Position numbers and translations under genes: made by a program. Positions 2,743-19,395 of a stretch of DNA of 20,000 bases are shown here, one piece after another. Source of the stretch: an uncultured virus (IMG/VR IMGVR_UViG_2838736955_000001) (taxonomy: Duplodnaviria > Heunggongvirae > Uroviricota > Caudoviricetes); IMG/VR virus record IMGVR_UViG_2838736955_000001. One strand, given 5' to 3'. The notes beneath the pieces are model-generated. The model did no database searches, was not told the DNA's origin, and saw only the letters and a program-made list of their open reading frames with translations. The stretch's first letter is position 1. Each line of letters opens with the position of its first letter.

Positions 2743-2788
2743 AAAAAAGCCCTGTTTTCATGGATATCCACGAAAACAGGGCTTCTTT
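2743..2788 (-). terminator. Rho-independent terminator, likely the native tRNA-Asn terminator
   Basis: AAGCCCTGTTTTC...GAAAACAGGGCTT inverted repeat with a T-run on the minus strand, directly downstream of the tRNA-Asn 3' fragment. Confidence 0.8.
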
Positions 2789-2793
2789 GAATT

Positions 2794-2810
2794 TGGCTCC
2801 CCGGGCCGGA
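2794..2810 (-). repeat. att core: 3' end of tRNA-Asn (TCCGGCCCGGGGAGCCA on minus strand)
   Basis: Reverse complement of TGGCTCCCCGGGCCGGA matches, from memory, the alphaproteobacterial tRNA-Asn 3' end with CCA; the rest of the tRNA is absent; sits ~140 bp before an integrase. Confidence 0.8.
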
Positions 2811-2953
2811 TAATTTTTAGTAACTTTACTGCTCGATAGCGACAACCGTCGCACTCCAAAACCGTTTTCTTTCAATGGCTTACTTGACCATTCCGACCAC
2901 GATGCGCATATATAGCGCATACCCCAATAGCGGGGAAATTGTGGGGAAGATTA

Positions 2954-4177
2954 ATGGGGAGCCATACTCGTAACGTTCTTACTGTGAAGTCTATCGCTGC
3001 TAGTAAGGCCACCAAGCTGCGCGATGGCGGCGGCCTGTATCTCGTCGCCAAGGGTAACGGTCGCTATTGGATGTTCAACTACACCTTTGCCGGCCTGCGG
3101 CGCGAGATGGGTATTGGTCCGCTCCACACAATCGGCCTCGCTGAAGCACGTGAGAAATGCGAGGACGCGCGGAAACTGATTCGCACGGGCGTTGACCCAC
3201 TGGCGGCCAAACGCGAGGCAGAGGAGGCCTCACCCAGCGCGATGACGTTCGGAGCCTATGCCGACGACTTCATCGATGCGGCCGTAAAGGCTGGCCGCTG
3301 GCGCGGAGGTAAGACGGAAGCACGCTGGCGTAATCTACTCGGCAATCACGCAAAGGATATCCGCTCTAAGGCTATCGGCGGCATCCGCGTGGCGGACGTA
3401 GTGAAGGTCATCAAGCCGCTATGGGGCGAAAAACAGGAAACCGCGGAGAAGCTGCGCGAGGCGATTGAGCGTGTTCTTGACGCGGCCAAGGTCGAGGGGC
3501 ATCGCTCCGGTGATAATCCGGCAGCCTGGAAAGGCAACCTCGAACATGTCCTCCACAAGCCTAACGAGCTTGTCGCACGCAACCATCACGCGGCCATGCC
3601 TCACGCCGACGTGCCCGCCTTCATGAAGAAGCTGGCCAAGGTAAGCGGCGTCAGCGCTCGCGCGCTGGAATTGACGATACTCACCGGCGTTCGCAGCGGC
3701 GAAACGCGAGGCGCGGTCTGGCCGGAATTCGATCTTGATGCGAAGGTTTGGACTATTCCAGCAATCCGCATGAAGGGCGGCAAGATACACCGCGTGCCGC
3801 TGTCGGACGAGGCAACTGCGCTCCTGAAAAAGATGGAGGAACAGTCGGTCAACGACTACGTCTTCCCTGGTGTCCGGCACAAGAAGCCTCTGTCGGATGC
3901 CTCACTGGCGAAGGCGCTGGACACTGCGGGCGGCGGAGTGTTCACGGTCCATGGCTTCAGGTCGACTTTCCGCGACTGGGCAACCGAGGTAGCACATGCA
4001 CCGCGAGAGATTGCCGAGGCCGCCCTCGCTCATGCTGTTGGCGATAAGGTCGAGCAGTCCTACGCAAGGTCGGATGCGCTGGAGCGTCGCCGTCAGTTAA
4101 TGCAGCAATGGGCAAACCACTGCATGACCGAGCCGGCAGCCATTGATGGTGAACCGCTCCACAGAAATGCGGCGTGA
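2954..4177 (+). CDS. int: P4-type tyrosine integrase with N-terminal arm-binding domain
   Basis: LRDGGGLYL...W...Y...REMGIG...LAEARE arm domain; catalytic R (GVRSGE), K (RMKGG), HGFR, LAH and Y (SYARSD). Confidence 0.95.
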   Translation: MGSHTRNVLTVKSIAASKATKLRDGGGLYLVAKGNGRYWMFNYTFAGLRREMGIGPLHTIGLAEAREKCEDARKLIRTGVDPLAAKREAEEASPSAMTFGAYADDFIDAAVKAGRWRGGKTEARWRNLLGNHAKDIRSKAIGGIRVADVVKVIKPLWGEKQETAEKLREAIERVLDAAKVEGHRSGDNPAAWKGNLEHVLHKPNELVARNHHAAMPHADVPAFMKKLAKVSGVSARALELTILTGVRSGETRGAVWPEFDLDAKVWTIPAIRMKGGKIHRVPLSDEATALLKKMEEQSVNDYVFPGVRHKKPLSDASLAKALDTAGGGVFTVHGFRSTFRDWATEVAHAPREIAEAALAHAVGDKVEQSYARSDALERRRQLMQQWANHCMTEPAAIDGEPLHRNAA

Positions 4178-4338
4178 CTTTTACGACCATATCGCCTATA
4201 TATTGATTGTCGCTGAGCGACCTGCAACCGGCGGGAACCCCGCCATGATCTGCTAGGCAGATCCAACCTCTAATCCGGCAATGCCGGCCTTCACCTTTTT
4301 ACGTGATTGATCTGGCCGAGTGCCGGAAGAGGAGAACT

Positions 4339-4545
4339 ATGACACCTTCAAATGACAATACCCCTGCCCTCGTCAGCTTGAACGAGGCTTGCCGCCTTAC
4401 GTCCATGTCCCGCACCATGCTGAACCGCTACCGCGCCGAAGGGCGGTTTCCTGTGGCGCTCGAATTGGGCGAGCGCCGAATTGCGTTCGTTCGGTCCGAG
4501 GTCGCCGCTTGGATTCAGGCGAAGATCGACGCGCGCGCCGCCTGA
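4339..4545 (+). CDS. alpA: AlpA family regulator/excisionase
   Basis: LVSLNEACRLTSMSRTMLNRYRAEGRFP...LGERRIAFVRSEV..WI; GAGGAG RBS before ATG 4339. Confidence 0.92.
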   Translation: MTPSNDNTPALVSLNEACRLTSMSRTMLNRYRAEGRFPVALELGERRIAFVRSEVAAWIQAKIDARAA

Positions 4546-4619
4546 TCAACATCACCAACCAGTGACACAACCACCTGCCGGCCCTCGCCGGCGGGCTATC
4601 TCATCGTGGAAGGAGACCA

Positions 4620-4886
4620 ATGCAGATCACCGACTTCAAAACTATAGACGAACCGAGCGGCGGCCATAGAGCCATTGCGGTCTTTGACCTCGAGCTTACC
4701 GATGAATGCCGCCTCTACGGCTTGCGGCTTCTCCGAATGCGCGACGGTCGCTTGCTGACATTTGCGCCGCAGTCTGGATATCGCCGTGTCGCGAGCTTCG
4801 CGACGCCACTGGCTGAACGCATCACCCGACTTGCTCTTGACCAATATGAGGCACTGACCGCCTATGACCGCATCCGCGCAGCCTAA
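4620..4886 (+). CDS. SpoVG-like nucleic-acid-binding protein
   Basis: MQITD...RAIA-x-F-x-L...L-x-GLRL...DG-x-L...P plus a C-terminal helix resembles SpoVG; AAGGAG RBS. Confidence 0.55.
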   Translation: MQITDFKTIDEPSGGHRAIAVFDLELTDECRLYGLRLLRMRDGRLLTFAPQSGYRRVASFATPLAERITRLALDQYEALTAYDRIRAA

Positions 4887-6444
4887 GCCAGATCCCCGCG
4901 AAGAAGCTTGGACAATCCATCGCGAACTCTGCCACATGCTCTCCGGCGACTCGGTACTCATCCCCTTCGCTGACGGCGAACCAGATTGGAGTACAACCAA
5001 CCGGGACACAGTCGAAAAAGTCAATGATTGGGCCGACTTCGAAGAAACAGACATTCCCCGCCTAGCGATCCTGACTGATGGCTTCCAGCGATTTATTGGC
5101 AAGGGCGAGGACGTTTCCGTCGTAACGCTCTGGCGGGCTGGCACGCCTATCATTCAGCAGATTGGTGGTGAGCCCTGCATCAGGGCCGTCGACGCCATCA
5201 TGGATGCCGTCATCGATGACATTCCTTTAGCTGATGTACTGCCCACTGCAGACCCACGTCATGAGATGCCCGACCTCACGCCGATGGAGCGAAAATTGTC
5301 CGAAATCGGCGATCGGCTTGCGAAACCGCCGACCGCCGCGAACGACAACAACCCCCAAAAGCAAGAGCCTGCGGTCCGCGAGATCGGTGTTGTTAATCCG
5401 GTGCACTGGCACGGCGAGGAGGTCCCAGAGCGCGAATGGTATGCAACTGACCTCATCCCGATGCGACAGGTCACGATTATCTCTGGCGATGGTGGCGTCG
5501 GCAAATCACTCCTCGCGCTACAAATTGGTGCCGCGGGTTGCATGGGATCTGAAACGCTCGGTATGACCTTTCTTGGCGGTCGGACGCTGTATCTCGGCGC
5601 TGAGGATGAAGCTGAAGAATTCCACCGGCGACTTCTCGATATCGTCAGCGCGCACGGAAAGACTCTCGCCGACCTTGAGGACTTCCGGCTCGTGCCTTTG
5701 GCCGGGATGGATGCCCTACTAGCCATTCCAGACAACAAAGGGGTGATGCAACCGACCCCGCTTTGGAAGTCGGTCGAAGAATATGCCGAAGGTTTCAAGC
5801 CTAAGCTAGTCGTGCTCGACACCGTGGCCGACCTCTTCGGCGGCGATGAGATCAAGCGCGGCCAGGCGCGCCAGTTCATCTCGATGCTTCGGCATCTAGC
5901 CATCAAGATCGACTGCGCCGTTGTCCTTCTTGCTCACCCATCTGTGCAAGGTATGCAGACTGGCACCGGATCCTCAGGCTCGACCGGATGGAGCAACAGT
6001 TCGCGTAGTCGCCTCTACATGACGAGGCCTGACGATAAGGGAGCTGACGCGGACCTGCGCGTGCTGAGGACGATGAAAATCAACTACGGCAAGGTCGGCG
6101 GCGAGATCACCATCCGATGGAAAGATGGATCATTCGAGCTCGACGACGGCAAGCCGGCCGCCGGATCTATGATGCTGGCGGCACGCGCCGAGGCCATCTT
6201 CCGTGACCTTCTATCAATGTTCAATCGGCAGGGTCGCAGCGTATGTCACGTACCAGGGACAACGTATGCTCCGGCTATGATGGCGAAGATGCCTGAAGCT
6301 GAGGGCGTCCCGAAGGCTAGGTTCGTCGACGCGATGAATGCCTTGCTGCGGTCAGGTGATATAAAGATCGTGGTGGAAGGCCCACCATCGAGGCCTCGGC
6401 AGCGGCTGATTTTGGCGTCGGAAGACTTCGGCGGAGGCAATTAA
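4864..6444 (+). CDS. AAA_25 / RSF1010 RepA-like replicative helicase with uncharacterised N-terminal domain
   Basis: Walker A GDGGVGKS, AEDE, Walker B LVVLD, LLAHPS, SGSTGW...R and K-x-NYG motifs. Confidence 0.9.
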   Translation: MTASAQPKPDPREEAWTIHRELCHMLSGDSVLIPFADGEPDWSTTNRDTVEKVNDWADFEETDIPRLAILTDGFQRFIGKGEDVSVVTLWRAGTPIIQQIGGEPCIRAVDAIMDAVIDDIPLADVLPTADPRHEMPDLTPMERKLSEIGDRLAKPPTAANDNNPQKQEPAVREIGVVNPVHWHGEEVPEREWYATDLIPMRQVTIISGDGGVGKSLLALQIGAAGCMGSETLGMTFLGGRTLYLGAEDEAEEFHRRLLDIVSAHGKTLADLEDFRLVPLAGMDALLAIPDNKGVMQPTPLWKSVEEYAEGFKPKLVVLDTVADLFGGDEIKRGQARQFISMLRHLAIKIDCAVVLLAHPSVQGMQTGTGSSGSTGWSNSSRSRLYMTRPDDKGADADLRVLRTMKINYGKVGGEITIRWKDGSFELDDGKPAAGSMMLAARAEAIFRDLLSMFNRQGRSVCHVPGTTYAPAMMAKMPEAEGVPKARFVDAMNALLRSGDIKIVVEGPPSRPRQRLILASEDFGGGN

Positions 6445-6450
6445 AGGCGG

Positions 6451-6583
6451 TTCCACCAACCGTTCCACCTCGCTTCCACCAGTGTTCCACCACCTTCCAC
6501 CAACCGTTCCACCCCTCCCCCTTATACCCCCACAGGGGTGGAACCACCCCGGTGCCGGTGGAAGCCGGCACGGCGCTTCCACG
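6451..6583. repeat. TTCCACC iteron array, putative replication origin
   Basis: TTCCACC at 6451, 6463, 6474, 6485, 6495 and 6507; inverted GGTGGAA at 6537 and 6557; TTCCACG at 6577; directly after the helicase stop. Confidence 0.75.
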
Positions 6584-6600
6584 CCCCTGTATGATGTTGT

Positions 6601-7406
6601 TCAGCCAATGAGCCAGATGATCGGCTTCACGAAAATCGCGCTGAGCTGCAACCCGGTACCCCACACGATTGCGAGTAAGCCACGTCTAGCCGCCTTCGAC
6701 GAGTTCAGAAGATTACGAACTGCCGGAAGCTTCAAATTTTCTTCTTTGGTTGCTGCCGCATAGCGGGCAACGCCTATGGTGATTGCATCGTTATCGGTAA
6801 GAATGACAGCCTTGGCTGTTATTCCGGCCCCTATCGCAGTGAGGAGCAAACCGATTGACACGAAAACATCAGATGCCACGGCTAGCCAAGTAGCGCCGCC
6901 TGCGTTCAAGATACTGCTCACAATTGCTCCTCGATTGACGATAGCGTCTGCGCCGCCCAACGTGCAGAATGCAGAAGCGAACCCCGTTGTTATGGCGGCC
7001 CAGTGGGTGACATTCAGGCCGGTAGTGTGCGGGCTTTTACCAATCCAGACCTGAGGGTCCCAAAGCATAGCAACATTGGCATTGTGATCGTAGTTATTGC
7101 TGTGCATTGACCAGTTCACCCAAGTGATGAACCCAGTCAGCATGGCCAAAAGTAGCCAGCGACAAACCACCACACTGCAGCCGCGTACCCATTGAGCAGC
7201 TCAGGTTTGTCAGCTACGTCTCCTAAGAACGTAAAGAGGCCGAATAGCGCGCTTCCATGCATAAGAAACAGACTGGCCAGAAGCCAACGACCATACTCTG
7301 CGGAGAGTGTGAACGTTACCCTCTGGCTCTCTTTTAGATCGTGATAGACGGCCGCAGCGCTTTGCTGCCTATCCATCATCCACTTCTTATCTGTCGAATC
7401 GGTCAT
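6601..7406 (-). pseudogene. Multi-pass membrane protein split by a 1-bp frameshift near 7155 (or sequencing error)
   Basis: ORF 7406-7137 ends WWFVAG|YFWPC; one extra C (GGC CTA) joins it to LLLAMLTGFITWVNWS of ORF 7173-6601, giving a continuous TM helix. Confidence 0.6.
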
Positions 7407-8259
7407 GCCCCACCTGTACTAACCCAGATGGAGAATACTGTGTGTCAATCAGATACGACTAGGAGGGGGCGATCATTTCTCCACAGACGAATCTTCGCCT
7501 ACCGGCGGTGTCCAAAACAACGAGTGCTAATACAGTTTTTTCCCTCCCGCGTGCGCAAGCGCGCGAGAAATCATTGAGGTTTTTGGCCTCAAAGTGGAAA
7601 AATTCGCGCTTAGTGCCGCAATCAATGATATTTCTACCGCTTAGTTGGCAGAAACAGCAATGGCCATGGTGTGTACATATGAAGGGTCCACTTACTGCAT
7701 CAGCCGTGGTGTGGATCTATGAGGGGACGAACGTAATAGTTGCTAATCCGCCACACCTAGCTTGCTCCCGTATTCCGGGGAGCTAGTTTGTTTGGCCGAA
7801 AGGTGTGCAAAACGCGAAGTTGTCACCTGTATATGTGAAGGGCGCGAAAAATCGTGCCACGCTACAGCGTATCTTTATGGATGAGTACGAACTCAAACGG
7901 CCTGCTGAGCGGTAATAATGGGGTACGCTGAAAAATCAGCATACCCATGTGCCTTTTCGTGCCGCGTTCTTGCGTACTCCTATGGAGAGATCTGCGCGCC
8001 GTCGCACCACGCGCACTCAGGTCACCAATGGGTGAGAGCCCATTTCAGTTTTCCCATTCGGCACGCCCATGCCGAAGCCGTCCACCTTGCCCTCACAGGG
8101 TGAAAGCGTTGCGCCTACCATCGTAGCGCCCGACGGCAACCTTTTCGTTGACGGCGGATGTAACCGCAGCGACTAGATCCCTTGTCTGCCGACAAGGTCG
8201 ATCGACCCTGCCGCCGACACGGCGCGCGGCGGGGTTCCGTTTCCAGTGGGTGGTTGAAA

Positions 8260-8288
8260 GGGCGTCGGCGAAAGCCGGCGTCTTTTTT
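8260..8288 (+). terminator. Rho-independent terminator upstream of the late operon
   Basis: GGGCGTCGGC-GAAA-GCCGGCGTCT followed by a T-run. Confidence 0.75.
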
Positions 8289-8330
8289 ATTGCCCTGTCA
8301 TTCAACATTCCAAAAAGTATGGAGAACCCA

Positions 8331-8642
8331 ATGCCGCTATCTGGCGTGCATATCGTTGCCGGCTATCCTGGCTCCAGTCAGCCCGATAAGCAGCAACCCA
8401 TCCTCGGCAAAATAGCCTGGTCGGAATCGCCGGCTACCGGCGTAGCGACGACCAATACCGCACCGGCTGTCGGTGACGCCCTCGGCCAGCCTATATTCCG
8501 GCTGCGCTCTTCCGCCGATGCCTACTTTGCGATCGGCAAGACACCGAATCCGTCGATGAGCCCGCGCGTTTTCGTGCCAGCGAACACCGACGTCGACATC
8601 TACGTCGACACTGGCGACAAGGCCGCATGGGTGGCTGCATGA
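8331..8642 (+). CDS. Small beta-rich phage protein (possible head decoration/structural protein)
   Basis: GGAGA RBS; FRLRSSADAYFAIGKTPNP...FVPAN...V..GDKAAWVAA resembles small phage virion proteins; ATGA-coupled to the next gene. Confidence 0.55.
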   Translation: MPLSGVHIVAGYPGSSQPDKQQPILGKIAWSESPATGVATTNTAPAVGDALGQPIFRLRSSADAYFAIGKTPNPSMSPRVFVPANTDVDIYVDTGDKAAWVAA

Positions 8643-9163
8643 AGACCGTAACCCTCGCCGACGCCATTGCCGCTCTCGAGCGCCGCATTGGCTTCCGCCG
8701 CGGCCGTCTAGTTGCGGTTTCGCAGCGCCTGCAACAGGCCAGCCTCATTCCGACCGGCGCACCGCGCACGGCTCCGCAGCTGAACCTTGCGGACGTTGTC
8801 GCGCTTGTGGTCGCCTATGCGGCCGACGCTCCCCTCCACCTGTCTGCAAGGTCGGTCGAGACGTACATCGGCCTGACCCCAGACGGGGCTGACGTGACCG
8901 GAGCACCCGCTGGCTACTGCAAAACCGCCGGCGACGAGCTGCTGGCTATCGCCGAGATGTACGACGATGCCGACCTTCGCAGGCTCCGCTTCGAATTCGT
9001 TTCAAGCTGGCCGGAAGTTGCAATCCACTTCGACGGCGGCGGTATCCACCGCTTCCTCAAACTTGGCGCTCTGCCCGGCCACTGGCAGTACTCCGGGCAT
9101 CGAAAATCCATCGTCATCAACGGCGCAGCTATGGCCGACGTCATCAAGGATCTATTCGCATGA
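8639..9163 (+). CDS. Hypothetical protein (possible N-terminal DNA-binding domain)
   Basis: ATGA overlaps with both neighbours; basic helical N-terminus. Confidence 0.7.
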   Translation: MKTVTLADAIAALERRIGFRRGRLVAVSQRLQQASLIPTGAPRTAPQLNLADVVALVVAYAADAPLHLSARSVETYIGLTPDGADVTGAPAGYCKTAGDELLAIAEMYDDADLRRLRFEFVSSWPEVAIHFDGGGIHRFLKLGALPGHWQYSGHRKSIVINGAAMADVIKDLFA

Positions 9164-9723
9164 AATTCAATAAATCCACCCCATTCCGCGTGCCGACCCT
9201 AGCCGAAGCAGACGCCGATTACGCGGCCATGGAAGCCAAACTCGCCGAGCTTGCAACCGAGGCCAGCCGCACAAACGCTGAGATCGATGAGCTCGCAGCC
9301 GATATTATCGCTCGCCCTGCCCCAAGGATACAGGCAGGCGTTGCCGCTCTTCTCGGCGAGACCGTCGACCAGACCCTTGCTAGCCGACCAGCAAAGCTCG
9401 CTGAACTGCGCAAGCATGCCGCTGACGTAGATGCCGCTATCGAGATCATACGACGCCGTATGCGTGACCGCCAAGCACAGGCGAGCGTAGCAGCATGTGC
9501 TGTCGTCCGTGCCGAATACGGAAAGCGGATCTCGGCTTTGGTCGAAGCGCTCGACGCGGTTCACGCCGCCCGCCTCCATGCCGATGCCCTGCTCGACGGT
9601 CTGGAGAACGAGGGCGTGCAAATCACATACTTACCTGCCGTCCGCGCAAACTTCCTCGGCGAGCGGAACGACGGACACATCCACCGCTTCAGGCGAGAAG
9701 CCGCGGAGGCTGGTTATGTCTGA
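9160..9723 (+). CDS. Alpha-helical coiled-coil hypothetical protein
   Basis: Ala/Glu/Arg/Leu-rich heptad-like helices; ATGA-coupled to the upstream gene. Confidence 0.75.
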   Translation: MKFNKSTPFRVPTLAEADADYAAMEAKLAELATEASRTNAEIDELAADIIARPAPRIQAGVAALLGETVDQTLASRPAKLAELRKHAADVDAAIEIIRRRMRDRQAQASVAACAVVRAEYGKRISALVEALDAVHAARLHADALLDGLENEGVQITYLPAVRANFLGERNDGHIHRFRREAAEAGYV

Positions 9724-9895
9724 ACGCCGCGAGTATGACATCCGTCCAGCCGACAACGGCCGCCCCGCCCTCCGATCCGTGAAACTACCGGGCGAACAGC
9801 GCCACACAGGGCGCTCTGAGAGCGCGAAAGCAATCGCGCGGCGCCTTGCCATCTCCAAGCGTGAGAAGGCTTTAGCGGAGCGCGCGAGTGGCTGA
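9716..9895 (+). CDS. Small basic hypothetical protein (59 aa)
   Basis: GGAGG RBS before ATG 9716; overlaps both neighbours by 8 nt. Confidence 0.55.
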   Translation: MSERREYDIRPADNGRPALRSVKLPGEQRHTGRSESAKAIARRLAISKREKALAERASG

Positions 9896-10382
9896 TGTAA
9901 GCGGGTATGCGGTGCAATGGGGGCGGCCGGCAGTCATTGCCGGACTTTTCGAAGAGCGCTTCGCCCGCGGCGCGTTTGATCGGAGCCTAGTTGATCATCC
10001 CGACGTTGCAGTTCTTTGGGGGCACGACAGCACCAAACCTCTAGCGAGGGTCTCGAATGGCAGCCTAAAACTCCGGTCTGACAATATTGGCCTTTTCTAC
10101 ACCTTCGCACCCGACGAGAAGTCGCCTATGGGCCAAGAGGCGTTGGCGAGCGTGCGGTCTGGCCTCGTCAATGAAGTGTCAGTCGGCTTTTCCTCGATCG
10201 AGGAGGAATGGGACGACAGCGGTAAGCTCCCAAAGCGGCTGATCACTCGCGCTTTTTTGGCGGAGGTCAGCATCGTTCTCTGGGGCGCTTACGGGAAATC
10301 GACGAGCGCCGAGGTTGTCGACCGGCGATCCGCCGCCGCCCAGCGCGCACAAGCGAAGATGAAATCGCGTGGCATCACCTGA
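9888..10382 (+). CDS. HK97-family prohead protease (peptidase S78)
   Basis: SGYA...FEERFARGAF...LWGHD (His)...LAR...L-x-L-x-x-D-x-x-GL...SVGF (Ser)...L-x-EVSIV...AY. Confidence 0.92.
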   Translation: MADVSGYAVQWGRPAVIAGLFEERFARGAFDRSLVDHPDVAVLWGHDSTKPLARVSNGSLKLRSDNIGLFYTFAPDEKSPMGQEALASVRSGLVNEVSVGFSSIEEEWDDSGKLPKRLITRAFLAEVSIVLWGAYGKSTSAEVVDRRSAAAQRAQAKMKSRGIT

Positions 10383-10620
10383 CATCGAATCCATCCGCGC
10401 ACTTTACCAAACCAACACCTGGCGCAGGCTCCGACGCCGGCACATCGAGGCACATCCGCTTTGTCAGGTCTGCATTGAAGATGAGATCGTCGAGGTTGCC
10501 ACTGCCGTAAGCCACCTCTCTCGGCACGACGGCGATCCGGCATTGTTCTTCGACGCGGATCAGCTGGTCAGCCTATGCCGTCCTCACCAAGAGTCGGCGC
10601 GGGCGGCGAAGGGCCTCTAG
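10369..10620 (+). CDS. HK97 gp74-like HNH endonuclease, degenerate active site
   Basis: LY-x-T-x-x-WRRLR...HPLCQVC...AT-x-VSH...H-x-GD...LFFD..QL-x-SLC-x-x-H. Confidence 0.85.
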   Translation: MASPDIESIRALYQTNTWRRLRRRHIEAHPLCQVCIEDEIVEVATAVSHLSRHDGDPALFFDADQLVSLCRPHQESARAAKGL

Positions 10621-10707
10621 GGGCGGTCAGAGGTCGGGCCGAGTGCCGGCTCGACTACCGCTCGGCCTCATTCGCGTACATTCCCACAATTCAAATGTTG
10701 ACCCCTA
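10619..10707. other. Candidate cos/packaging region
   Basis: Non-coding gap after a gp74-like HNH, the position of cos in HK97-like phages; bracketed by GGGCGGTCA (10621-10629) and TTGACCCC (10698-10705). Confidence 0.4.
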
Positions 10708-10725
10708 ATGGGTCTAGGAGGCCCT

Positions 10726-12672
10726 ATGGCCACTGATAACACCGATGACCTGATCATCAGTATCTCCACCGACCAGGCCACTTTGCGCCGGTCGATTCAG
10801 CGCATTGAGAGAGATCTCGGCGGCCTCGCAGGCAGCGTAAAAAAGCAGTTCGATAACGTCGGAAAGACAGTCGACAACTCCCTAACCAGCTCTCTGCAGA
10901 ACCGCATCAACGCTATGACGGGCGTCGCTACCAAGGCGGCGAAAGAGTGGACAGGTGCGCTCGCTGATCAAGGCGCCGAGCTCGAACGGTTGCGTGCTCG
11001 CTACTCACCGCTGTTCAATACCATAAACGGTTACAAATCGGCAGTTGCAGATATCCGTCGTGCCCATGCGCTCGGTGCCATCTCATCTAACGAGATGGCC
11101 GCGGCCATCAGCCGGGAACGACAGGCCGCGTTGGCGGCAACTGCAGCGATCAAAGGCAGAAACAGGGCACTTGTTGAGACGCCCGCGACGCCTTCGGTTC
11201 GTGGCGCCGGCTCTGGGTCGTTCCAGACCGGCAATATCGCCGCACAGTTTCAGGATATCGGCGTTACCGCGTTCGGCGGCATGAACCCGATGACCATCGC
11301 GCTGCAACAGGGCACTCAGCTTTCTGCCGTCCTGTCGCAGATGCGAGGCGAAGGGCAGTCTTCCGGTCGAGCACTCGCGGGGGCATTCGCCTCGATTGTT
11401 AGCCCGCTGTCTCTCGTCACCATCGGCCTTGTTGCCGGCTCAGCTGCTTTGATCCAGTATTTCACCTCCGGTGATGACCAGGCCGAAAAACTGAAGGTTC
11501 AACTCGAAGCGCAAGTAACGCTCATCGAAACCGTCGCTCAGCGATGGGGTGACGCCTATCCAGCCTTGAAAGCTTACTCCGATGAGCTTGTACGGGCACG
11601 GGACGCCGGGCAGCTACAGGACGCGCAGTCTGCTGCGACGACTCGCCTTTACCAGGATCAGGCCGCGGCGCTCGATCAACTCGTGAAGATTTCCCCAGAG
11701 GTCTCGCGCGCTCTCCGAGACGCGACATCGCCGGAGGCGGCCACATCGGCCATTGCTTATGAGCAGGCTATCGCAGACATGCGGAAGTCGCTGGAAGACG
11801 GCAAGGATCCTTCGGACGCATTCGGCCGAGCGACGCAAGCCTTGGCGACAATCATCGAAGCCACCGGTAGCAAGGCACTTAAAGGTTACGGCGACCAGTT
11901 CGATATCCTCGCCGGCAAAATTGAGACCGCCACAGGCAAGGCGGCCGCATTTCGAATGGAGCTTCCACCGCTCGGCACTCTTGGCGAAACGTGGTCCGAA
12001 GGCGGAAAGTTATACACCAGCGAGCAGTTCCAGCCGGTCAACCCAGGCGTCCCGACTCGTCGGCCGCTCGTCGAGCTGGAAGGCCTGCCAGGTGCTGCCG
12101 GTGCCGATAAAAAGTCCGAGACTGCAGCCCAGCGTGCCGCCAATGCATACCGCGACCTGATCAAGTCCGCGGACGACCGTATCGCCCAGATGCAGCTCGA
12201 GGCTGCCCTTCTAGGCAAATTCGGGAATGAAGCTGATGCGGCCCGTTTTAAACTCGACCTGTTGCAGCAGGCCGAGGACAAGGGACGTTCCCTAAATGAC
12301 GCACAGCGCGCCGAGGTCGAAAAGAAGGTTGAGATTTACGGCCGATATGCCGACCAGCTTGCGAAAGCCAAACTGCAACAGGATCTCCTGGAACAGCGAC
12401 GCTTTAGTTCGATGTCGTCGACCGACCAGCAGGTGGTGACGACACTCAAACAGTATGGTCTTTCCACCGACCTCAACAGCCCCGAAGCAGGCCAGATCCG
12501 CAAGTCACTTCGGGATGAATCCTTCCGTGACGATATCAAATCGTTCGCCTCGGACTTCTCGAACGGCGTTCTTCAGAACGGGGGCGGCATTGGCAAGGCG
12601 CTTGCCGACAGCATTCAACGGCCGATCCTGGGGCCGCAAGTCAATTTCACAATGAAGTGGAGCCGCGCATGA
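10726..12672 (+). CDS. Phage tail tape-measure protein (lambda-type N-terminal motif), short, 648 aa
   Basis: GNIAAQFQDIGVT...GMNPMTIALQQGTQL motif, hydrophobic segment SPLSLVTIGLVAG and long Ala-rich helices; AGGAGG RBS. Confidence 0.9.
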   Translation: MATDNTDDLIISISTDQATLRRSIQRIERDLGGLAGSVKKQFDNVGKTVDNSLTSSLQNRINAMTGVATKAAKEWTGALADQGAELERLRARYSPLFNTINGYKSAVADIRRAHALGAISSNEMAAAISRERQAALAATAAIKGRNRALVETPATPSVRGAGSGSFQTGNIAAQFQDIGVTAFGGMNPMTIALQQGTQLSAVLSQMRGEGQSSGRALAGAFASIVSPLSLVTIGLVAGSAALIQYFTSGDDQAEKLKVQLEAQVTLIETVAQRWGDAYPALKAYSDELVRARDAGQLQDAQSAATTRLYQDQAAALDQLVKISPEVSRALRDATSPEAATSAIAYEQAIADMRKSLEDGKDPSDAFGRATQALATIIEATGSKALKGYGDQFDILAGKIETATGKAAAFRMELPPLGTLGETWSEGGKLYTSEQFQPVNPGVPTRRPLVELEGLPGAAGADKKSETAAQRAANAYRDLIKSADDRIAQMQLEAALLGKFGNEADAARFKLDLLQQAEDKGRSLNDAQRAEVEKKVEIYGRYADQLAKAKLQQDLLEQRRFSSMSSTDQQVVTTLKQYGLSTDLNSPEAGQIRKSLRDESFRDDIKSFASDFSNGVLQNGGGIGKALADSIQRPILGPQVNFTMKWSRA

Positions 12673-13448
12673 GCGCATTCGTCTATCTGACCGCACCTGA
12701 CCAATCGGCGGCTTACCTCTTTGCAGACGGCGCCGGCTACGACACCAACGGCGTCGTCGGAAACTTTACGCAAAAGATTGCCTGCGGCCAGGTCGCCCCG
12801 ATTGCCATCACGGCGGTCGGTCACCAGGTACTGGGCGACAAGATGAAAGACTTTCTGATCAAGCAGGCCGACCGCTGGGGAATCGACGAGTTCGTCGACA
12901 ACTTCTTGCCTGCCTTCCTTCGGGAGACGGCGCTTGTGTATGCCGAGCACCAGCAGCACGAGGTGCAGAACGTCGCGATTTTGATCTCGGCGTGGAGTGA
13001 AACCAAGGGCGGCTTCCGCCTTGGCTTCCAGACGATGGACGAACTGCGCGATGACGTTACCGTCAGAGCATTCGAACCAAACATCGATCGTGAGTGCACC
13101 ATGCGCGGAGCGAAGATGGAAGTGATGGATCTAGTCACCATCGCTCGACCTCTCGTACCAGGCGAAACCGTGGAAAGCTACGCACGGTACTTCGGCAAGG
13201 CTGTTCTTTCACGCATGCGTGAGATCCCCGGCCTCCCGATGTACCTGAAGGACACTGATGCGAAGCCTCGCTACCAGATCGGCGGGCACATCGACATGGC
13301 GACGGTCGACAAGGACGGCGCGCGGATCGAGCGCATTCATGTCTGGGATGACAAGGTCGGCCAGATGATCGACCCGTCAGTCGACCACAAGACGGTCGTG
13401 CCGCTCATGAACCGCAAGGCTCGTCGGGCGCTGCGAGGTGCGGCGTGA
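12669..13448 (+). CDS. Proteasome-beta/HslV-like Ntn-hydrolase fold protein (Ser1 type)
   Basis: After Met removal: S1, D19 (FADG), K35, G50, ILISAWS strand and QIGGHIDMATV C-terminal motif; ATGA-coupled to the TMP gene. Confidence 0.6.
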   Translation: MSAFVYLTAPDQSAAYLFADGAGYDTNGVVGNFTQKIACGQVAPIAITAVGHQVLGDKMKDFLIKQADRWGIDEFVDNFLPAFLRETALVYAEHQQHEVQNVAILISAWSETKGGFRLGFQTMDELRDDVTVRAFEPNIDRECTMRGAKMEVMDLVTIARPLVPGETVESYARYFGKAVLSRMREIPGLPMYLKDTDAKPRYQIGGHIDMATVDKDGARIERIHVWDDKVGQMIDPSVDHKTVVPLMNRKARRALRGAA

Positions 13449-13654
13449 GCATCCATCATCGCATGATGCTGCAACGGTATGGCCTCGGCCATACCAGCAG
13501 CCTCTACAGCCAAGTCGTATTCGATCCGATTTTCACACCGTTGTTCACGGCCATCATCGGAAACGTCACGATCGGCGCTACCGGCATCACCGTCGCGTCT
13601 GTTGCTTCGGCGATCACCGTGACAGCCCTTACCGGAGGAATCATCGTCCGATGA
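13445..13654 (+). CDS. 69-aa peptide resembling only the N-terminus of a rhizobial phage tail-tip protein
   Basis: MSIHHRMMLQRYGLG...FDPIFTPLFTAIIG...IGATGITVASVASAI; GTGA/ATGA-coupled on both sides; family resemblance recalled, not searched. Confidence 0.55.
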   Translation: MSIHHRMMLQRYGLGHTSSLYSQVVFDPIFTPLFTAIIGNVTIGATGITVASVASAITVTALTGGIIVR

Positions 13655-14184
13655 CGGCCATCAACGTTATCCTTACCCCGGAATACGCCGTCATTGTCAG
13701 CGACACCTTGGCGCGCGCAGCAGGTAATCCTGACTTTCACGTCGCCAAGGTAATGCCTTGCCCGCATATGCGGCTGGCGGTTGCCACACGCGGCAGGATG
13801 GATGCCATCTCGAAAGTAGTCGGCGCGATCTCCGTCGGCGCATTCGACTACGATAGCTGCCGGGCCTTCCTAGCTGGCACGTATCCCCAGCTAGGCCTGG
13901 ACGAGGTGGAAATCGTCGTTGCAGGTTGGTCCGCAAAAGGTCCGGCGGCCTTCATCATTTCGGCCGCGAACACCGGCGGCAAGGTCATGGACATTCAGCA
14001 CGTCCTGATCACGCCAACCGTTCCCAAGGAAGTCGCCGACGCCTTCTCCGCTGATCCAATCGTACTGATGCCCGATCTCCTCAAAAGTCAGGCGAATTCA
14101 CCCGACGTCGGCGGCTTCATGAACGTCACCCAGATCGGCGAGCACGTCATAGAGACCTACACCGCCGGCCCCATCAGCGCCTAA
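13651..14184 (+). CDS. Proteasome-beta/HslV-like Ntn-hydrolase (Thr1 type)
   Basis: Likely start ATG 13651 (GGAGGA RBS). After Met removal: T1, D17 (VSDT), K32, G47, EIVVAGWS and DVGGFMNVTQI. Confidence 0.72.
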   Translation: MTAINVILTPEYAVIVSDTLARAAGNPDFHVAKVMPCPHMRLAVATRGRMDAISKVVGAISVGAFDYDSCRAFLAGTYPQLGLDEVEIVVAGWSAKGPAAFIISAANTGGKVMDIQHVLITPTVPKEVADAFSADPIVLMPDLLKSQANSPDVGGFMNVTQIGEHVIETYTAGPISA

Positions 14185-14253
14185 GCGCTCACCCCAACTC
14201 ATCCAATCATTCGCACTGGCCGCGCGCCGGAGCGCTTCCGTATGGGAGATTTC

Positions 14254-16689
14254 ATGCCAGAATTGGCAAATACGATTTGGGCCGATGGCCCATCCAGCAT
14301 GCCCACGCAGCCCCAGAAGTCGCAGATCCGCAGCTGGGGTACGTGGATCGAGCAGATCATCGCTGCATTCACGTCGAATGGCGGCCTGATCTACTCTTCG
14401 CTGGCGCTCCTCAATGCAGATCTTTCCAAGCCGGCCAACTCTATGGCTTGGGTTTTCGGCGACTCCGTCGCCGCAAATAACGGAGTCTATGGCAAGGTCG
14501 GCGCTTCGGGCTCTGGTTCGTGGACGCGTCGATCTGACCTACCGTTCAGCTTTATCGTAGCCTCTGACGTTGGAGCAGGAACGCCTAACGCAATCATGGC
14601 GACGACGGCCATCCCGGTTTCGCAGTCTGCGCTCGTGTGGCTGCAGGTTGCACAGACCAATACAGGATCCCCGGTTGTAGTTAGCTTCAACGGCGGTGGG
14701 CCGCTCGTGTTGAAAACCAACACCGGCAACGATCCTGCGACGGGCGGAATAGTCGCAGGCATGGTCGTGCTTGGCATCGTCTCCGGGGCAACGTTTAGGC
14801 TAGTGAGCGATCAAGCCTCTAGTGCGATCGTCGCCGCTGCGGAGGCAGCTGCTGCGGAGGCTCAGGCGGCTGCCGCCAGCGTCAACATCAAAAACGTTGC
14901 GACGCGGGCTCAGGTCAGAGCTCTCAACGCTTCGGTCTCGACGCTGGCTTTTCACAACGAGGGCGGGCGAAAAGGCCAGTTTCGTTGGACGGTTGGTGAT
15001 TTCACCGCCCGCGTCGCATCGGACACCGAAGGCGCCGTATATCTCGAGGCTGACGACGTTTCAGCCAGCGCCGGGTCGTGGGTTCGTGATTTCGACGGTG
15101 GCGTCGATATCCGTTGGTTTGGTGGAGTAGCTGACAATGGAGCTACCGACAATGCTGCATCATTCGTTGCGGCCGCGGCGATAGGCACGCAGATCTACAT
15201 CCCCGAAGGCATCTTCAGAGTTAACGCCACCGCGGCAAATTTCGATACGATCATGACGCTCGCTGGCAGATGCTATGGACCCGGTGTGATCGAGGTTTTA
15301 TGTGGCACAGGCTTCTACCCAGCGACCAACTACTATGGCTTCGTGAGCGCGTTGCCGCTCAACCTGAACCTTCGCGGTGAGAACGGTAGCGGCACCTTGA
15401 CAGCCGCAAGCATCACCTTTGCGGGCACGGCTGGAAACCACACAGCAGCGATCACATTTCCATCGCTACCGGTCGGGATCGCTGTTGGGCAGTTGCTCTC
15501 GCTTGTCCCCACGACCGTCGTCGACAAGCGAACCAGCCAATGCCTCCTCGCAGGCGCGAACAAGATCACAAGCATTGTAGGCAATGTTGTCACGGTCTCA
15601 ATCTCCTACCACGGGACGATCACCGCGAAGATGCCGACTATTGTCGGATCGGTGAGTTTCACGGGCTCTTGGCGGCTGAATAAGTCGATCATCACCTACG
15701 CAGGTTCGCGTACCCCGATCTACGTGCAAAACCAGTTTGCTCGCATCAACATCACCGACGTTGGACTGACCGGGCCTTATACCAGCGGCGCGTTCGTCAA
15801 CACGTCTGGCATAACCGTTGGCTGGATCGACGAGGACCGACACTATGTGAAAGATCAGTTACGTCTCTCCGGCGTCAGCATAAACGGGTTTGCCTCTGGC
15901 GTTCTTGGGCAGGGTGCGCGTACATTCCTGGGGGACCTTCGTGGCTCGAACTGCCTGTCTCTCCTGGCCGGGCGACGCCAATCGCAATTCTACGCGACCG
16001 CGATCTTTGTCGGGGCCTGCGGCGGGGATGCTGTTTCACTCACTGACAATTCGGAGATTTTTGTTTCGGCGGAGGTCATGTCTTGCGGCAATAGCGGGCG
16101 TGGTGTCTGGGCATTCGGCGGTGACTTCAACTGCCCGGGTGTTGTTCATGTCGGATATAATCTCGGTGCTGGAGGCTATGCAAAAGCTGGAGCCAACTTC
16201 ATCGCCGGTGCAACGTCGTGTGCTTTTCGAAACAACGACATCGGCTGGGGAAATGAAAACGGTAAGATGCATGTCGATGACACGGTTTCAGAGTACAATC
16301 TGAAGACCGGTTTCGAGTGCGGAATGGGGCATACCAGCGCCCAGAGAATTGTCTCCCGATACAATGAGAATGGCCTCTATTCTCTGGTGGGCGGCACGAT
16401 CTTCGCAGACGATTGCGATGTCTACGGCAACTCACAAAGCGGTGCTGCCAGTGCCGAGCTGAGTATGGTCCGCGCCTATCGCGGTAAGTTCCATGACAAC
16501 ACTCTCGATGGCGTTTCCATCATTGGGAACTCCCACTTCCGCGGTGACTCCGTGCAGATCAACAACAATGGCAGATACGGCGTCAACGGGATGCTGAACA
16601 GCACCTCTAGAACGCCCGGCGTGACCGGGTCGGGTAACGCCTCCGGTAACACGTTCTTCGACCCCACCAGCAGCGGAACGGTTTGGTAA
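14254..16689 (+). CDS. Tail fibre/tailspike with right-handed beta-helix (putative polysaccharide depolymerase)
   Basis: N-terminal anchor and AAAEAAAAEAQAAAA linker; VDIRWFGGVADNGATDNAA...IYIPEG pectate-lyase-3-like start; C-terminal N-x-x-x-G beta-helix repeats. Confidence 0.85.
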   Translation: MPELANTIWADGPSSMPTQPQKSQIRSWGTWIEQIIAAFTSNGGLIYSSLALLNADLSKPANSMAWVFGDSVAANNGVYGKVGASGSGSWTRRSDLPFSFIVASDVGAGTPNAIMATTAIPVSQSALVWLQVAQTNTGSPVVVSFNGGGPLVLKTNTGNDPATGGIVAGMVVLGIVSGATFRLVSDQASSAIVAAAEAAAAEAQAAAASVNIKNVATRAQVRALNASVSTLAFHNEGGRKGQFRWTVGDFTARVASDTEGAVYLEADDVSASAGSWVRDFDGGVDIRWFGGVADNGATDNAASFVAAAAIGTQIYIPEGIFRVNATAANFDTIMTLAGRCYGPGVIEVLCGTGFYPATNYYGFVSALPLNLNLRGENGSGTLTAASITFAGTAGNHTAAITFPSLPVGIAVGQLLSLVPTTVVDKRTSQCLLAGANKITSIVGNVVTVSISYHGTITAKMPTIVGSVSFTGSWRLNKSIITYAGSRTPIYVQNQFARINITDVGLTGPYTSGAFVNTSGITVGWIDEDRHYVKDQLRLSGVSINGFASGVLGQGARTFLGDLRGSNCLSLLAGRRQSQFYATAIFVGACGGDAVSLTDNSEIFVSAEVMSCGNSGRGVWAFGGDFNCPGVVHVGYNLGAGGYAKAGANFIAGATSCAFRNNDIGWGNENGKMHVDDTVSEYNLKTGFECGMGHTSAQRIVSRYNENGLYSLVGGTIFADDCDVYGNSQSGAASAELSMVRAYRGKFHDNTLDGVSIIGNSHFRGDSVQINNNGRYGVNGMLNSTSRTPGVTGSGNASGNTFFDPTSSGTVW

Positions 16690-16705
16690 AAGGAAGGATC
16701 AGACT

Positions 16706-16909
16706 ATGCAAATCGGCGACAAAGTTATGTGCGGATCGATCACCCCGAGCCCTAGTTCGGGGAATCTAACGCTTGGTGCTGAGTACGAAGTTTCTGGCGT
16801 CACGCCCTCCCGTGATGGCGAGAAGATCTCACTGGTCGATATCGACGGGCTTTTCGAAGCGCTGGATTTTCGGCAAGTCACAACGGTTGAGGCTGCATCA
16901 GTGCTCTGA
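16706..16909 (+). CDS. Small hypothetical protein (SH3-like beta pattern)
   Basis: AAGGAAGG RBS; MQIGDKV-x-C...LT-x-G-x-EYEV pattern. Confidence 0.65.
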   Translation: MQIGDKVMCGSITPSPSSGNLTLGAEYEVSGVTPSRDGEKISLVDIDGLFEALDFRQVTTVEAASVL

Positions 16910-16924
16910 TCAATAATACATCGA

Positions 16925-16956
16925 GGGCGCCGGCCGAAGCCGACGCCCATTTTTTT
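16925..16956 (+). terminator. Terminator closing the late operon (possibly bidirectional)
   Basis: GGGCGCCGGC-CGAA-GCCGACGCCC then A and T7; forms a C(UUCG)G hairpin on the minus strand. Confidence 0.7.
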
Positions 16957-17143
16957 GGAGGGGCTCTTTGGAAACAACTACAATTTGGCACGGTCCATCT
17001 GCATTAGTCGGCGCCCTCGCCGCTCTGTGCTGGACGGGTTCGATGAATTGGATGTGGTTGCCGTTTGTGATCTTGATCTTGGTTGCCGATAGAATCAGAC
17101 TGCGACTGCGCTGACATCGAAAGTTCAATGATTCGGGGGAAAT

Positions 17144-17959
17144 ATGCGGGGCTTAGTTGTAACACCAAGTGTGCAAATCGGTCCTGGTACTCAGTTCGCT
17201 ATGGGTCGACACGACGATCAGTTACTTCGCATGTGGCTTCTTTATTGGGATAAACTCGCGAACCCCACGCAATCAAACTTTGTCGTCGGGCTTCCGAGGG
17301 AATACGAATTTCTTGAAACGGCGGGAATATTCTCCAACCACTTCGTCGATCATTTCGGAGGAACTGGTCCGGACGTATTCAGAGAAACTAGCTTGGAGCT
17401 TTTTGATAGGCTTGAAGAGCACGATATATCGCCTTGGGCGGTGTACGGAATATTAGATCCCGAAGATAAGATGGACGTGAAGGACGGACGAATTCTGCGT
17501 GTCGCACTAATGTCCGCGTTGCCCATTCCAAACCAAGACGTTCCGCTCGATGACATACTTACCTTTCGCGATAGACGCTCTGCAGAACGTGAAGCCCTCA
17601 TGGCTCATATCGACGATGTCTATCAGTCTGTCGTGAATGCCCCTGATCGTCCACTGGCAGAGCACACGGCGTTAAAGCGCTTAGCCTCCGGTGCAAAGGA
17701 TCAGGTGGACGCAATTCATGAATCCAGGATTCCGTTTCGCCTTATGGATTTAGCTTCTGACTTCAATCTCGTTGCCGGCGTTGCTGCAGCGGCTGGATCG
17801 TTAGCAATCGGAGCGACGTGGCCAGTTGCGCTGGGCAATAGTCTTGTGGCCGGCGGAAGCATCACAATCGGAAAGATTGCGGGCATCGGGCAGAAGAAGA
17901 AAAACGATACCCCATTTCGATATGTGGGGCTCTATCATGACGAGGTCTTTAAACCATAA
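17144..17959 (+). CDS. DUF6236-like protein (accessory cargo)
   Basis: MRGLVV-x-P...LLYWDKL-x-x-P...L-x-x-ALPIP-x-x-DVPLDDIL-x-FR-x-RR-x-x-E...PF-x-Y pattern; visibly more AT-rich than the flanks. Confidence 0.7.
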   Translation: MRGLVVTPSVQIGPGTQFAMGRHDDQLLRMWLLYWDKLANPTQSNFVVGLPREYEFLETAGIFSNHFVDHFGGTGPDVFRETSLELFDRLEEHDISPWAVYGILDPEDKMDVKDGRILRVALMSALPIPNQDVPLDDILTFRDRRSAEREALMAHIDDVYQSVVNAPDRPLAEHTALKRLASGAKDQVDAIHESRIPFRLMDLASDFNLVAGVAAAAGSLAIGATWPVALGNSLVAGGSITIGKIAGIGQKKKNDTPFRYVGLYHDEVFKP

Positions 17960-17978: not shown

Positions 17979-18533
17979 TTAATCTGGCGAAAGCGCCCGC
18001 CATTTCTTGATGCGGGCGGCCTCTGCAACGCCTTCCTCGGTTAGTGAATATCGGAAGGCATTCTTTTCTGTGCCGACCAATCTGGCGGCACCGGCGGCGA
18101 TGAGCTCGTCGAGAAGCACCTGCCCTGCCCCTGGTATCGAGGCAGCTGTGTCGCACTCTGGATGTGTCGCCATGAAAATCAGCGCGGTTTCGATCTTGCC
18201 GCTCAAGCCCAGCTGCGGCTTGTATTTTGCTCTGCGTTTTTCCTTGTCGGCACGCCAGACGGCGATGTCGGTGCCGTGCGCAGAAGACGACCGACTACGT
18301 TTTCCGCCGCCATTTTCGCGCATCCACTTCTCGTAGGGATCGTCTTTTTCGGCGGTGGCAAGCCCGCTGATTTCGTCAAGCTTGGCGTCAATGGCGCGCC
18401 TATCCCACTTGCGAGTTCCAGCGATGGCAGGCGGCATCTTATGCGTCGCCACCCACATGGAAAACGGGGATTCGGCGATGCCGAGGTAAGCAGCAGCTTC
18501 CTTGCGACCAATTAGGCGGGGGCCGTCAGTCAT
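17979..18533 (-). CDS. Excisionase-like HTH fused to a C-terminal winged-helix-like domain
   Basis: PRLIGRKEAAAYLGI...P...RKWDRRAIDAKLD...DPYEKW; C-terminal KPQLGL...YSLTEEG. Confidence 0.75.
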   Translation of the reverse strand: MTDGPRLIGRKEAAAYLGIAESPFSMWVATHKMPPAIAGTRKWDRRAIDAKLDEISGLATAEKDDPYEKWMRENGGGKRSRSSSAHGTDIAVWRADKEKRRAKYKPQLGLSGKIETALIFMATHPECDTAASIPGAGQVLLDELIAAGAARLVGTEKNAFRYSLTEEGVAEAARIKKWRALSPD

Positions 18534-19066
18534 GGCCGAGACTTTCCGCCATAATACTCCGCCAGACGTCTTGCCTCATCTTTGCCGGCCTCTGTAACCA
18601 CCCAGGTCGGATCGCCGTCCTGGTCTTTCTTGCCAGGCCTCAGGGCGCCCTTCTCAACCAGCACATTCATTGTGTGAGTACTGGCATTGGGAACAGCTAG
18701 GTGCGACCGCACGTCGGGATGCTCTGCCATAAACACCAGCGCGTTCTGGCTACGGGTATCGAGGCCGAGTTGCGGCTTCTTTTTCGCGCTACGCCGTTTG
18801 GTGTTATCCCACGCGCTCCAGTCCTCCTTGCCGTCGGGTCCGCCAATCGCGGTCCCCGATCCGATCCCCCAATATTGGGAGTAGAACCTTGCTACCAGAG
18901 GCACTGGGCGGCCATCGTGAAGCGGATCGCGAAGAGGAAATCCCTGCCGCTCTAGCATCGGGATGACAGCCTTCGTGTAATAGGACGCCCTCTCTTTCCC
19001 AACCACGGCAATGGCTATTTCGCGGTCGGTGGCGAAGAGCGGGAGGTTAGCCAGGGCGTCGTTCAT
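18530..19066 (-). CDS. Excisionase-like protein (second family) fused to a paralogous winged-helix-like domain
   Basis: LPLFATDREIAIAVVG...LERQGFP-x-x-DPLHDGR...PDGKEDW; C-terminal KPQLGL...WVVTEAG; coupled to both neighbours. Confidence 0.65.
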   Translation of the reverse strand: MNDALANLPLFATDREIAIAVVGKERASYYTKAVIPMLERQGFPLRDPLHDGRPVPLVARFYSQYWGIGSGTAIGGPDGKEDWSAWDNTKRRSAKKKPQLGLDTRSQNALVFMAEHPDVRSHLAVPNASTHTMNVLVEKGALRPGKKDQDGDPTWVVTEAGKDEARRLAEYYGGKSRP

Positions 19067-19362: not shown

Positions 19363-19395
19363 ACCTATCGGACACATGCAACGGAGCGCTCCGAA

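Follow-up and report, generated by a model that had tools for sequence, protein, structure and literature searches.

Several described satellites carry tail genes of the phages they exploit. The phage-inducible chromosomal island (PICI)-like elements (PLEs) of Vibrio cholerae encode a tape measure protein (TMP), a tail assembly chaperone (TAC) and a baseplate hub, and swap TMP and hub to build chimeric tails; tmp genes have also been reported in other satellites, including capsid-forming PICIs (cf-PICIs) (PMC12987554, accessible part). EPIPs carry the small terminase (TerS) plus a TMP (PMC12822802), the cos-type PICI EcCICFT073 has two cos sites (PMC6739421, accessible part), and tail genes are forbidden in the PICI model of SatelliteFinder (10.1101/2022.09.14.508007, accessible part). 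Here, we analysed a window of 20,000 nt, the final 20 kb of the 77,193-nt provirus record IMGVR_UViG_2838736955_000001 of an uncultured virus. It holds an element of 17.4 kb, measured between its attachment (att) repeats, that lies in tRNA-Asn and whose late genes follow the order o103-o174-o187-o59-protease-HNH-TMP-Ntn1-o69-Ntn2-fibre-o67. An earlier note had read this locus as a candidate new type of satellite that may do the opposite of remodelling the helper head. Sequence comparison indicates that the element is very probably a cos-type satellite of 16-3-like phages. With less assurance, we favour a fuller reading in which this satellite of 16-3-like tailed phages is packaged by its helper and biases helper tail assembly by means of a shortened TMP, proteasome-like proteases and a fibre.

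The element resembles the PLEs, which are also headless, encode their own TMP and have tails shorter than those of the helper, as is proposed for our element. It differs from them in having a temperate cos siphophage as its likely helper, instead of the lytic ICP1, an AlpA-helicase left arm and its own fibre, where PLEs use helper fibres (PMC12987554, accessible part). A TAC-like gene is present in 5 of the 11 family records defined below, all sister elements of the window copy, whereas the window copy itself lacks one TMP end, has no TAC or hub match and adds Ntn (N-terminal nucleophile) proteases. With the cos-type PICIs of Gram-negative bacteria, such as EcCICFT073, the element shares two cos-like sites and presumably the use of helper terminase (PMC6739421, accessible part); unlike them, it has a TMP and a fibre, no capsid homologue, no recognised Rpp and, in the window copy, no TerS (10.1101/2022.09.14.508007, accessible part). 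The EPIPs of Mycolicibacterium are likewise small elements with a TMP, with TerS in many members and without a tail tube, but they measure 11 kb, have a serine integrase and a head-tail adaptor/stopper, and give longer tails; neither a protease-TMP pair nor a fibre is reported for them, whereas our element has a tyrosine integrase and no adaptor match (PMC12822802). HNH and HK97 prohead protease genes are shared with cf-PICIs, some of which have tmp, and one relative (G014) ties the TMP-Ntn pair to such a layout, but the window element has no capsid, portal, large terminase (TerL) or head-tail adaptors (10.1101/2022.09.14.508007, accessible part). P4-like satellites (NC_001609) have similar types of integrase and AlpA, and o187 is helical and of the size of Psu; there is, however, no sequence similarity to Psu or Sid, and no alpha, delta or epsilon match in Pfam and PHROG scans. 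A literature search, mostly of papers outside subscription, gave no account of this lineage or of a TMP-Ntn pair, and the accessible parts of PMC12429752, PMC9618062 and PMC4936722 do not describe the family. Since satellites with a TMP have been described before (PLE, EPIP, some cf-PICIs), what is new here is this lineage and its TMP-protease module, not a category of satellite, and the contrast with known satellites drawn in the earlier note was overstated (PMC12987554, accessible part; PMC12822802).

The helper assignment comes from a cos-like site at 7462..7568 (+ strand), of the type found in phages 16-3 and G009, with a predicted cohesive decamer at 7502-7511, which the earlier note had missed together with a second motif past HNH. 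A profile trained on three phages, with 16-3 outside the training set, scored 61.9 bits at 7462-7568. The decamer matches phage L034 in 10/10 positions and the annotated 16-3 cos in 7/10, and window 7500-7567 shares 86% identity with the spacer between HNH and terS in phage G009. The exact cos motif occurs in three viral records, all of which place it between HNH and terS, and in phage 16-3 the annotated cohesive end lies between the same two genes in the same motif frame; the TerS proteins of 16-3 and G009 are 89% identical. Across the family, the profile matched 7 of 9 elements (17.5-61.9 bits), whereas resampled controls (20 x 9) reached at most 10.1 bits; of five loci found later, two matched. 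Because the site matches those of 16-3-type siphophages, it points to the helper, and strain X5 carries a colinear G009-like prophage of the helper type. Evidence for the second cos-like motif (10620..10706, + strand) is weaker, coming from resemblance to the HNH-terS spacer of phage RHph_Y3_1 rather than from a profile; the motif is 84% identical over 38 nt to the DNA that follows HNH in G007. By inspection, a different cos-like motif follows HNH in G001, G004, the window, G002 and G007. DNA searches for both cos-like sites in named phages returned nothing useful.

The element is well delimited. Its left att repeat (2784..2811, - strand) contains the 3' end of tRNA-Asn (2794-2811), and strain X5 has an empty site there. 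In contigs of runs X1 and X2, which may be the source of this DNA, the repeat recurs with 0-2 differences 205-232 nt beyond the window end and runs into an intact tRNA-Asn with a GTT anticodon, which places the right end well past position 16956, where it had been proposed. The 205 nt between the window end and the right att leave too little room for head genes, and reading downstream to the intact tRNA-Asn revealed none to the right. The position of the right att also means that DUF6236, two excisionase-like open reading frames (ORFs), xre, o136 and o65 belong to the element. In agreement with the claim that capsid, portal, terminase and tail tube are missing, capsid, portal and TerL families had zero matches across the whole 77,193-nt record, the 25 window ORFs scanned gave no tail-tube match, and no TerS was found in the window.

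The tail module starts with the TMP (648 aa; 10726..12672, + strand), which lacks the C-terminal ~400 aa. The earlier note had recognised the TMP family and overlooked that this copy covers no more than the N-terminal 635 aa of a phage protein of 1029-1065 aa: it is 85% identical to the G009 TMP (1029 aa) over aa 4-635 and 51% identical to that of RHph_Y3_1 (1065 aa). Its middle is 77-95% like G009 and 25-53% like the related element L005, and the TMPs of the window and L005 both stop at aa 635-640. Behind it lies Ntn1 (12669..13448, + strand), whose model (pLDDT 83) has 20S subunits as all of its best structural matches (Foldseek E 1.4e-8, TM 0.50/0.64). Proteasome beta subunits use T1, D17 and K33; among nine TMP-adjacent Ntn proteins, seven match T/S1, D17 and K33 exactly, whereas the pattern is shifted by two in the window Ntn1 (Ser1/Asp19/Lys35). 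By its model, Ntn1 has a proteasome-beta fold and retains the catalytic T/S-D-K arrangement, and proteolysis is predicted. Ntn2 (13651..14184, + strand; Thr1/Asp17/Lys32), which had no match in 50,697 phages, was placed in the Ntn family by alignment and not by a fold model, so that of the two Ntn proteins claimed earlier the first stands by fold and the second by family alignment only. Between them, o69 (13445..13654, + strand) is 53% identical to the N-terminus of the G009 tip protein; the earlier label of a tail-tip-like peptide holds for its homology, but these 69 aa are an N-terminal piece that aligns solely with the start of a 732-aa protein. The tail fibre/spike gene (14242..16689, + strand; phrog_38233, E 3e-91) has a phage-type anchor, shares 58% identity with 16-3 p023 across aa 17-314 before diverging, and has no match among solved structures.

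The family was assembled with scans seeded with o174, o187 and Ntn1, which gave ten further near-complete records with o187 (L005, G001-G007, G011 and G012); with the window, these make up the 11-record counts, whereas the fragments L006 and L022, and G013-G015, which lack o187, stand outside. All 11 records have o187 and TMP, ten have the protease, seven TerS and five a TAC-like gene plus Neck1. Two TMP arrangements recur. Six records (window, L005, G005, G007, G011 and G012) have a cut TMP, no chaperone and Ntn1 next to it with a 4-nt overlap, and G013 and G014 bring the number of cut TMP-Ntn1 pairs to eight, with TMPs from at least three families. The other five (G001-G004 and G006) have a short two-ended TMP plus a chaperone-like gene; in G001, the TMP has 651 aa, compared with 859 aa in 16-3, with both ends retained and the middle gone. 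A scan seeded solely with Ntn1 found five new loci, four with Ntn1 right behind a short TMP. The whole phage G015 has an Ntn fragment only, and for phage AH14a a proteasome-beta gene is listed ahead of the terminase (in the accessible part of its description), so that such Ntn genes are not confined to satellites. Production of a TMP-Ntn1 fusion by ribosomal frameshifting was rejected, as the last 90 nt of nine TMPs contain no X-XXY-YYZ slippery site. As a separate observation, cut TMPs of different families share a G-x-x-F-x-L-E-like tail before Ntn1 (window 12630-12672 and seven others); it occurs in 7 of 8 cut and 0 of 9 whole TMPs, against a 2.7% background, but was defined post hoc from the same sequences and does not count as evidence.

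The gene order described earlier is not a one-off, as it recurs in headless records of 15-19 kb. Among the searchable family records, capsid (PF05065) and TerL (PF03354) each gave 0/10 matches, and portal (PF04860) gave 0/8 in those searched; phage proteins used in tblastn gave no match in the remaining record for the first two or in the other three for portal. Comparison of 104 ORFs from G001-G008 and L005 (mostly from a list of 193 ORFs) with PHROGs also gave no capsid, portal or TerL family. Integrases, replication genes and sites vary across the family (tRNA-Asn, -Pro and -Phe, and beside -Ser). Three elements have att-bounded lengths of 17.4, 17.2 and 17.6 kb, and no long repeat lay within the ends of five other records. 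Family records score 20-37% complete. The proposal that the element may do the opposite of head remodelling is too simple: the best-kept genes are o187 (11/11) and the prohead protease (10/11), with the fibre in 6/11, and G008 and G013 carry a capsid without TerL.

Pairwise Nei-Gojobori comparisons showed that the late genes are under purifying selection. Between the window and L005, dN/dS (nonsynonymous to synonymous rates) was 0.08-0.26 in 8 of 9 genes (o69, 0.26; Ntn2, 0.12), with the TMP saturated (pN/pS 0.34); between G001 and G002 it was 0.05-0.13 over seven genes (TMP, 0.053), with the TAC pair left out. The TMPs of G003 and G006 (38% identity, pN/pS 0.63) are not an orthologous pair. 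These values (0.05-0.26 overall) show that the late genes are not neutral and bear out the earlier preference for selected streamlining over random decay. None of the phage records compared contained o174, o187 or a whole Ntn gene, so that the selection signal in these genes belongs to the elements. The protein o187 (9160..9723, + strand) is the best family marker, with 60 homologues and 0 matches in 50,697 phage records; its model (pLDDT 88.7) is a long helical hairpin, and it is a candidate head-remodelling scaffold. Fold comparison of o187 returned generic coiled coils only; a cluster of which 20% are Psu had come up as a lead in the Atlas (0.89). This lead to a Psu/Sid identity was not borne out by the comparisons of fold and sequence, with absence from the fold lists not counting as exclusion.

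We propose that the element would excise and replicate by itself, as suggested by the att repeats, empty site, integrase, AlpA, helicase and iteron-like repeats, and that helper TerS and TerL would then cut and package it at the cos-like site, as the match to the HNH-terS spacer suggests. The head of the helper might be fitted to the element by o187 and the prohead protease, as they are the late genes kept best across the family and the three att-bounded elements span 17.2-17.6 kb; this constant size fits a small head or trimers alike. In the tail, the element TMP would compete with the near-identical helper TMP for chaperones and tube protein, an Ntn protease would trim or mature TMP, and satellite particles would receive shorter chimeric tails bearing the satellite fibre, while helper output would drop. 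These proposals build on the eight records, from several TMP families, in which an Ntn gene and a cut TMP are coupled, and by analogy with PLE we favour TMP competition, Ntn processing and chimeric tails as the probable role of the tail module. A bolder, tentative extension, which we think rather unlikely as a whole, is that a widespread rhizobial family edits the helper tail with a proteasome-beta-type protease whose gene is joined to that of a cut TMP, cutting or replacing the helper TMP and supplying its own shorter tail and fibre; satellite and helper would thereby acquire different tails and host ranges, and the module would have been re-made on several unrelated TMP families while moving among headless, capsid-only and cf-PICI-like elements.

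Several results weigh against the reading as a helper-packaged, tail-biasing satellite. G001, G004 and G011 have no match with the main cos profile, a search of the source strain at 80% likeness showed no G009-like helper, and the contigs examined contained no circle joint of the element. The adjacent prophage was rejected as helper, since it has no HK97 capsid or portal family match and no cos match and is of a different type. Fibre (6/11), HNH (6/11) and TerS (7/11) are not universal. The purely headless picture is also qualified by three loci: the fragment G008 (o187-TMP-TerS-capsid, no TerL), the 16-kb G013 (L042:5626-6744), in which an HK97 capsid replaces o187 and protease without TerL and which also has a cos-like site, a TAC-like gene, a cut TMP and Ntn1, and the cf-PICI-like fragment G014 (L043:70-10428), with TMP-Ntn1 ahead of portal, protease, capsid and TerL. 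On the head side, PF07455 had matches in 0/11 records at E<=1, and hhalign against single P4 sequences gave probabilities of 0.3 and 0.1. In favour of the satellite reading, nine element proteases split from four phage proteases at 97/97, but the tree contains only these four phage rows. Selection on the TMP may have been inherited from before its capture, because its middle is G009-like and not L005-like. Unlike in PLE, G001-G004 and G006, there is no chaperone gene beside the window TMP. The C-terminal end of a TMP normally meets the tail tip, and use of the window copy as a ruler is doubtful because it lacks both this tip-binding end and an adjacent chaperone gene.

For the same reason, the main rival is a satellite whose cut TMP, tip peptide and Ntn proteases act purely as an inhibitory decoy and never enter virions. 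The TMP is cut in 6/11 family records, none with a chaperone gene, o69 is a fragment of a tip protein under selection, and satellites are known to block tails through Rta (PMC12987554, accessible part) and Tai (PMC11364771, accessible part). We nonetheless regard it as unlikely: a satellite that jams all tails cannot spread, three of the six cut-TMP records (window, G007 and G012) retain a full fibre gene, and sister elements retain a two-ended short TMP with a chaperone. The capsid-bearing relatives raise the question whether this copy comes from a cf-PICI-like lineage, has lost its head genes and moves by cos, its late genes mattering only in those relatives. The layouts of G008 (o187-TMP-TerS-capsid), G013 (capsid at the o187 site) and G014 (TMP-Ntn-portal-protease-capsid-TerL) would agree with this, as would the cf-PICIs reported to carry tmp (PMC12987554, accessible part). 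Headless records are, however, the majority (11) and deeply diverged, and late genes are selected between headless pairs, which makes such a loss very unlikely.

Decay of an HK97-like prophage, that is, a G009-type genome minus head and most tail genes, kept by chance or by its cargo, appears largely refuted and most improbable. The overall order is that of G009, with a TMP 85% identical and o103 and xre-o136-o65 in common, and the distance from cos to TMP is 3.2 kb, compared with 9.6 kb in G009; truncated TMP and tip genes and the lack of a visible helper in the source strain would also fit. Against this, the 3.2-kb block is not derived from G009 (protease 34%), o187 and Ntn2 occur in 0/50,697 phages, and o174 and whole Ntn genes in no phage record compared; genes are missing in the same way at many sites, with low dN/dS, and no late gene contains an internal stop codon.

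As for the remaining features, the att-int-alpA-helicase-iteron organisation proposed earlier was confirmed by the tRNA-Asn 3' end, Pfam matches and repeats. The left arm, on the + strand, consists of a tyrosine integrase (2939..4177; Arm-DNA-bind_3, Phage_int_M and Phage_integrase), an AlpA regulator/excisionase (4339..4545; PF05930, E 6e-11), the small ORF o88 (4620..4886), which also precedes the primase-helicase in RHph_Y3_1 (53%) and G009 (44%), and an AAA_25 helicase/primase-type replication protein (4864..6444; PF13481, E 2e-30; phrog_906). Iteron-like repeats at 6445..6565, with 8 of the 13 copies of a 7-mer in the window, likely represent the replication origin. The element thus has the PICI core parts integrase, AlpA-type regulator and primase/replication gene, and an int-alpA-replication arm is typical of PICIs. 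Two cargo ORFs (190 and 89 aa; 6601..7406, - strand) have no Pfam or PADLOC match and no family; PADLOC matched 0/7 window proteins.

The late operon was described earlier as largely translationally coupled from 8331 to 16909, in agreement with which 8 of its 11 gene junctions overlap by 4-14 nt. It is preceded by a stable hairpin with a T-run (8256..8287, + strand; -22 kcal/mol, z -4.5), a site that a terminator scan did not list; this structure before o103 would suit helper-dependent read-through. The non-coding stretches at window 8167-8330 and L005:9527-9692 are well kept and both end in a strong hairpin plus T-run, with similar hairpin-type ends before the late operon in G001, G002 and G007; Rfam gave no match for the non-coding DNA ahead of the operon. 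On the + strand follow o103 (8331..8642; 72% to G009 and 55% to RHph_Y3_1), whose homologue lies behind the lysis cassette of helper-type phages, the element marker o174 (8639..9163), of no known family, the small conserved ORF o59 (9716..9895; 54-93% identity in L005, G003, G006 and G007), an HK97-type prohead protease (S78; 9888..10382; PF04586, E 8e-32; TIGR01543 above cut-off) and a terminase-associated type of HNH endonuclease (10369..10620; phrog_2323, E 2e-18). Pfam and PHROG matches supported the protease, HNH, TMP and tailspike assignments alike. Downstream lie o67 and a DUF6236 cargo gene (16706..17959, + strand; Pfam and PHROG scans) and a right-end module common to related elements (x184, x178, xre, o136 and o65; 17979..20000), in which xre-o136-o65 are 74% identical in nucleotides to phage G009. 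We also observed that x184 and x178 (window 17979-19066) have a C-terminal domain in common (37% identity) and recur at the right ends of most relatives.

Among the relatives, L005 has an AriA/OLD-like ATPase in the fibre position (L005:16811-18712) and a 331-aa ORF (L005:6696-7691; phrog_15411), both defence-like cargo. Some target sites are not tRNA genes: G003 ends in a piece of a DNA-repair gene (phrog_10276), presumably radC-like, G007 ends in a similar piece, and G005 starts at a neighbouring gene (L017:1662-2675) that we take to be dusA-like. A weak o174-like match (32%; L002:2432-2680), on a contig of a metagenome-assembled genome of Synergistaceae, was the single match, and an unrelated one, in a scan of a genome collection, and plasmids gave a single short o69-like match and nothing more. 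The first 57.5 kb of the record (G000:C1:1-57497) belong to another prophage, with the end of its integrase at window 304; it was ruled out as part of the element (record 1-57,497), as host genes and att lie between. This prophage is seemingly complete, with portal, terminase, capsid and large internal-protein-like genes by labels from ORF reading rather than a family scan; it has an o103 homologue (47%), and in strain X5 a tRNA with a GCA anticodon lies at its edge. The host is likely rhizobial, because the named homologues of marker genes come from Rhizobium, Aminobacter, Ensifer, Bradyrhizobium and Mesorhizobium.

Because current satellite detectors leave out any element that carries tail genes (10.1101/2022.09.14.508007, accessible part), members of this family would end up classed as broken prophages. 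The reading as a tail-biasing satellite would extend tail manipulation by satellites beyond PLE, for which it has mainly been shown, to nitrogen-fixing symbionts and their temperate cos phages, and a named, cultured helper type (16-3-like) makes it testable. Finally, the recurrent association between cut TMPs and proteasome-like proteases may offer a handle on TMP processing and on how a parasite tells its own tails from those of its helper.

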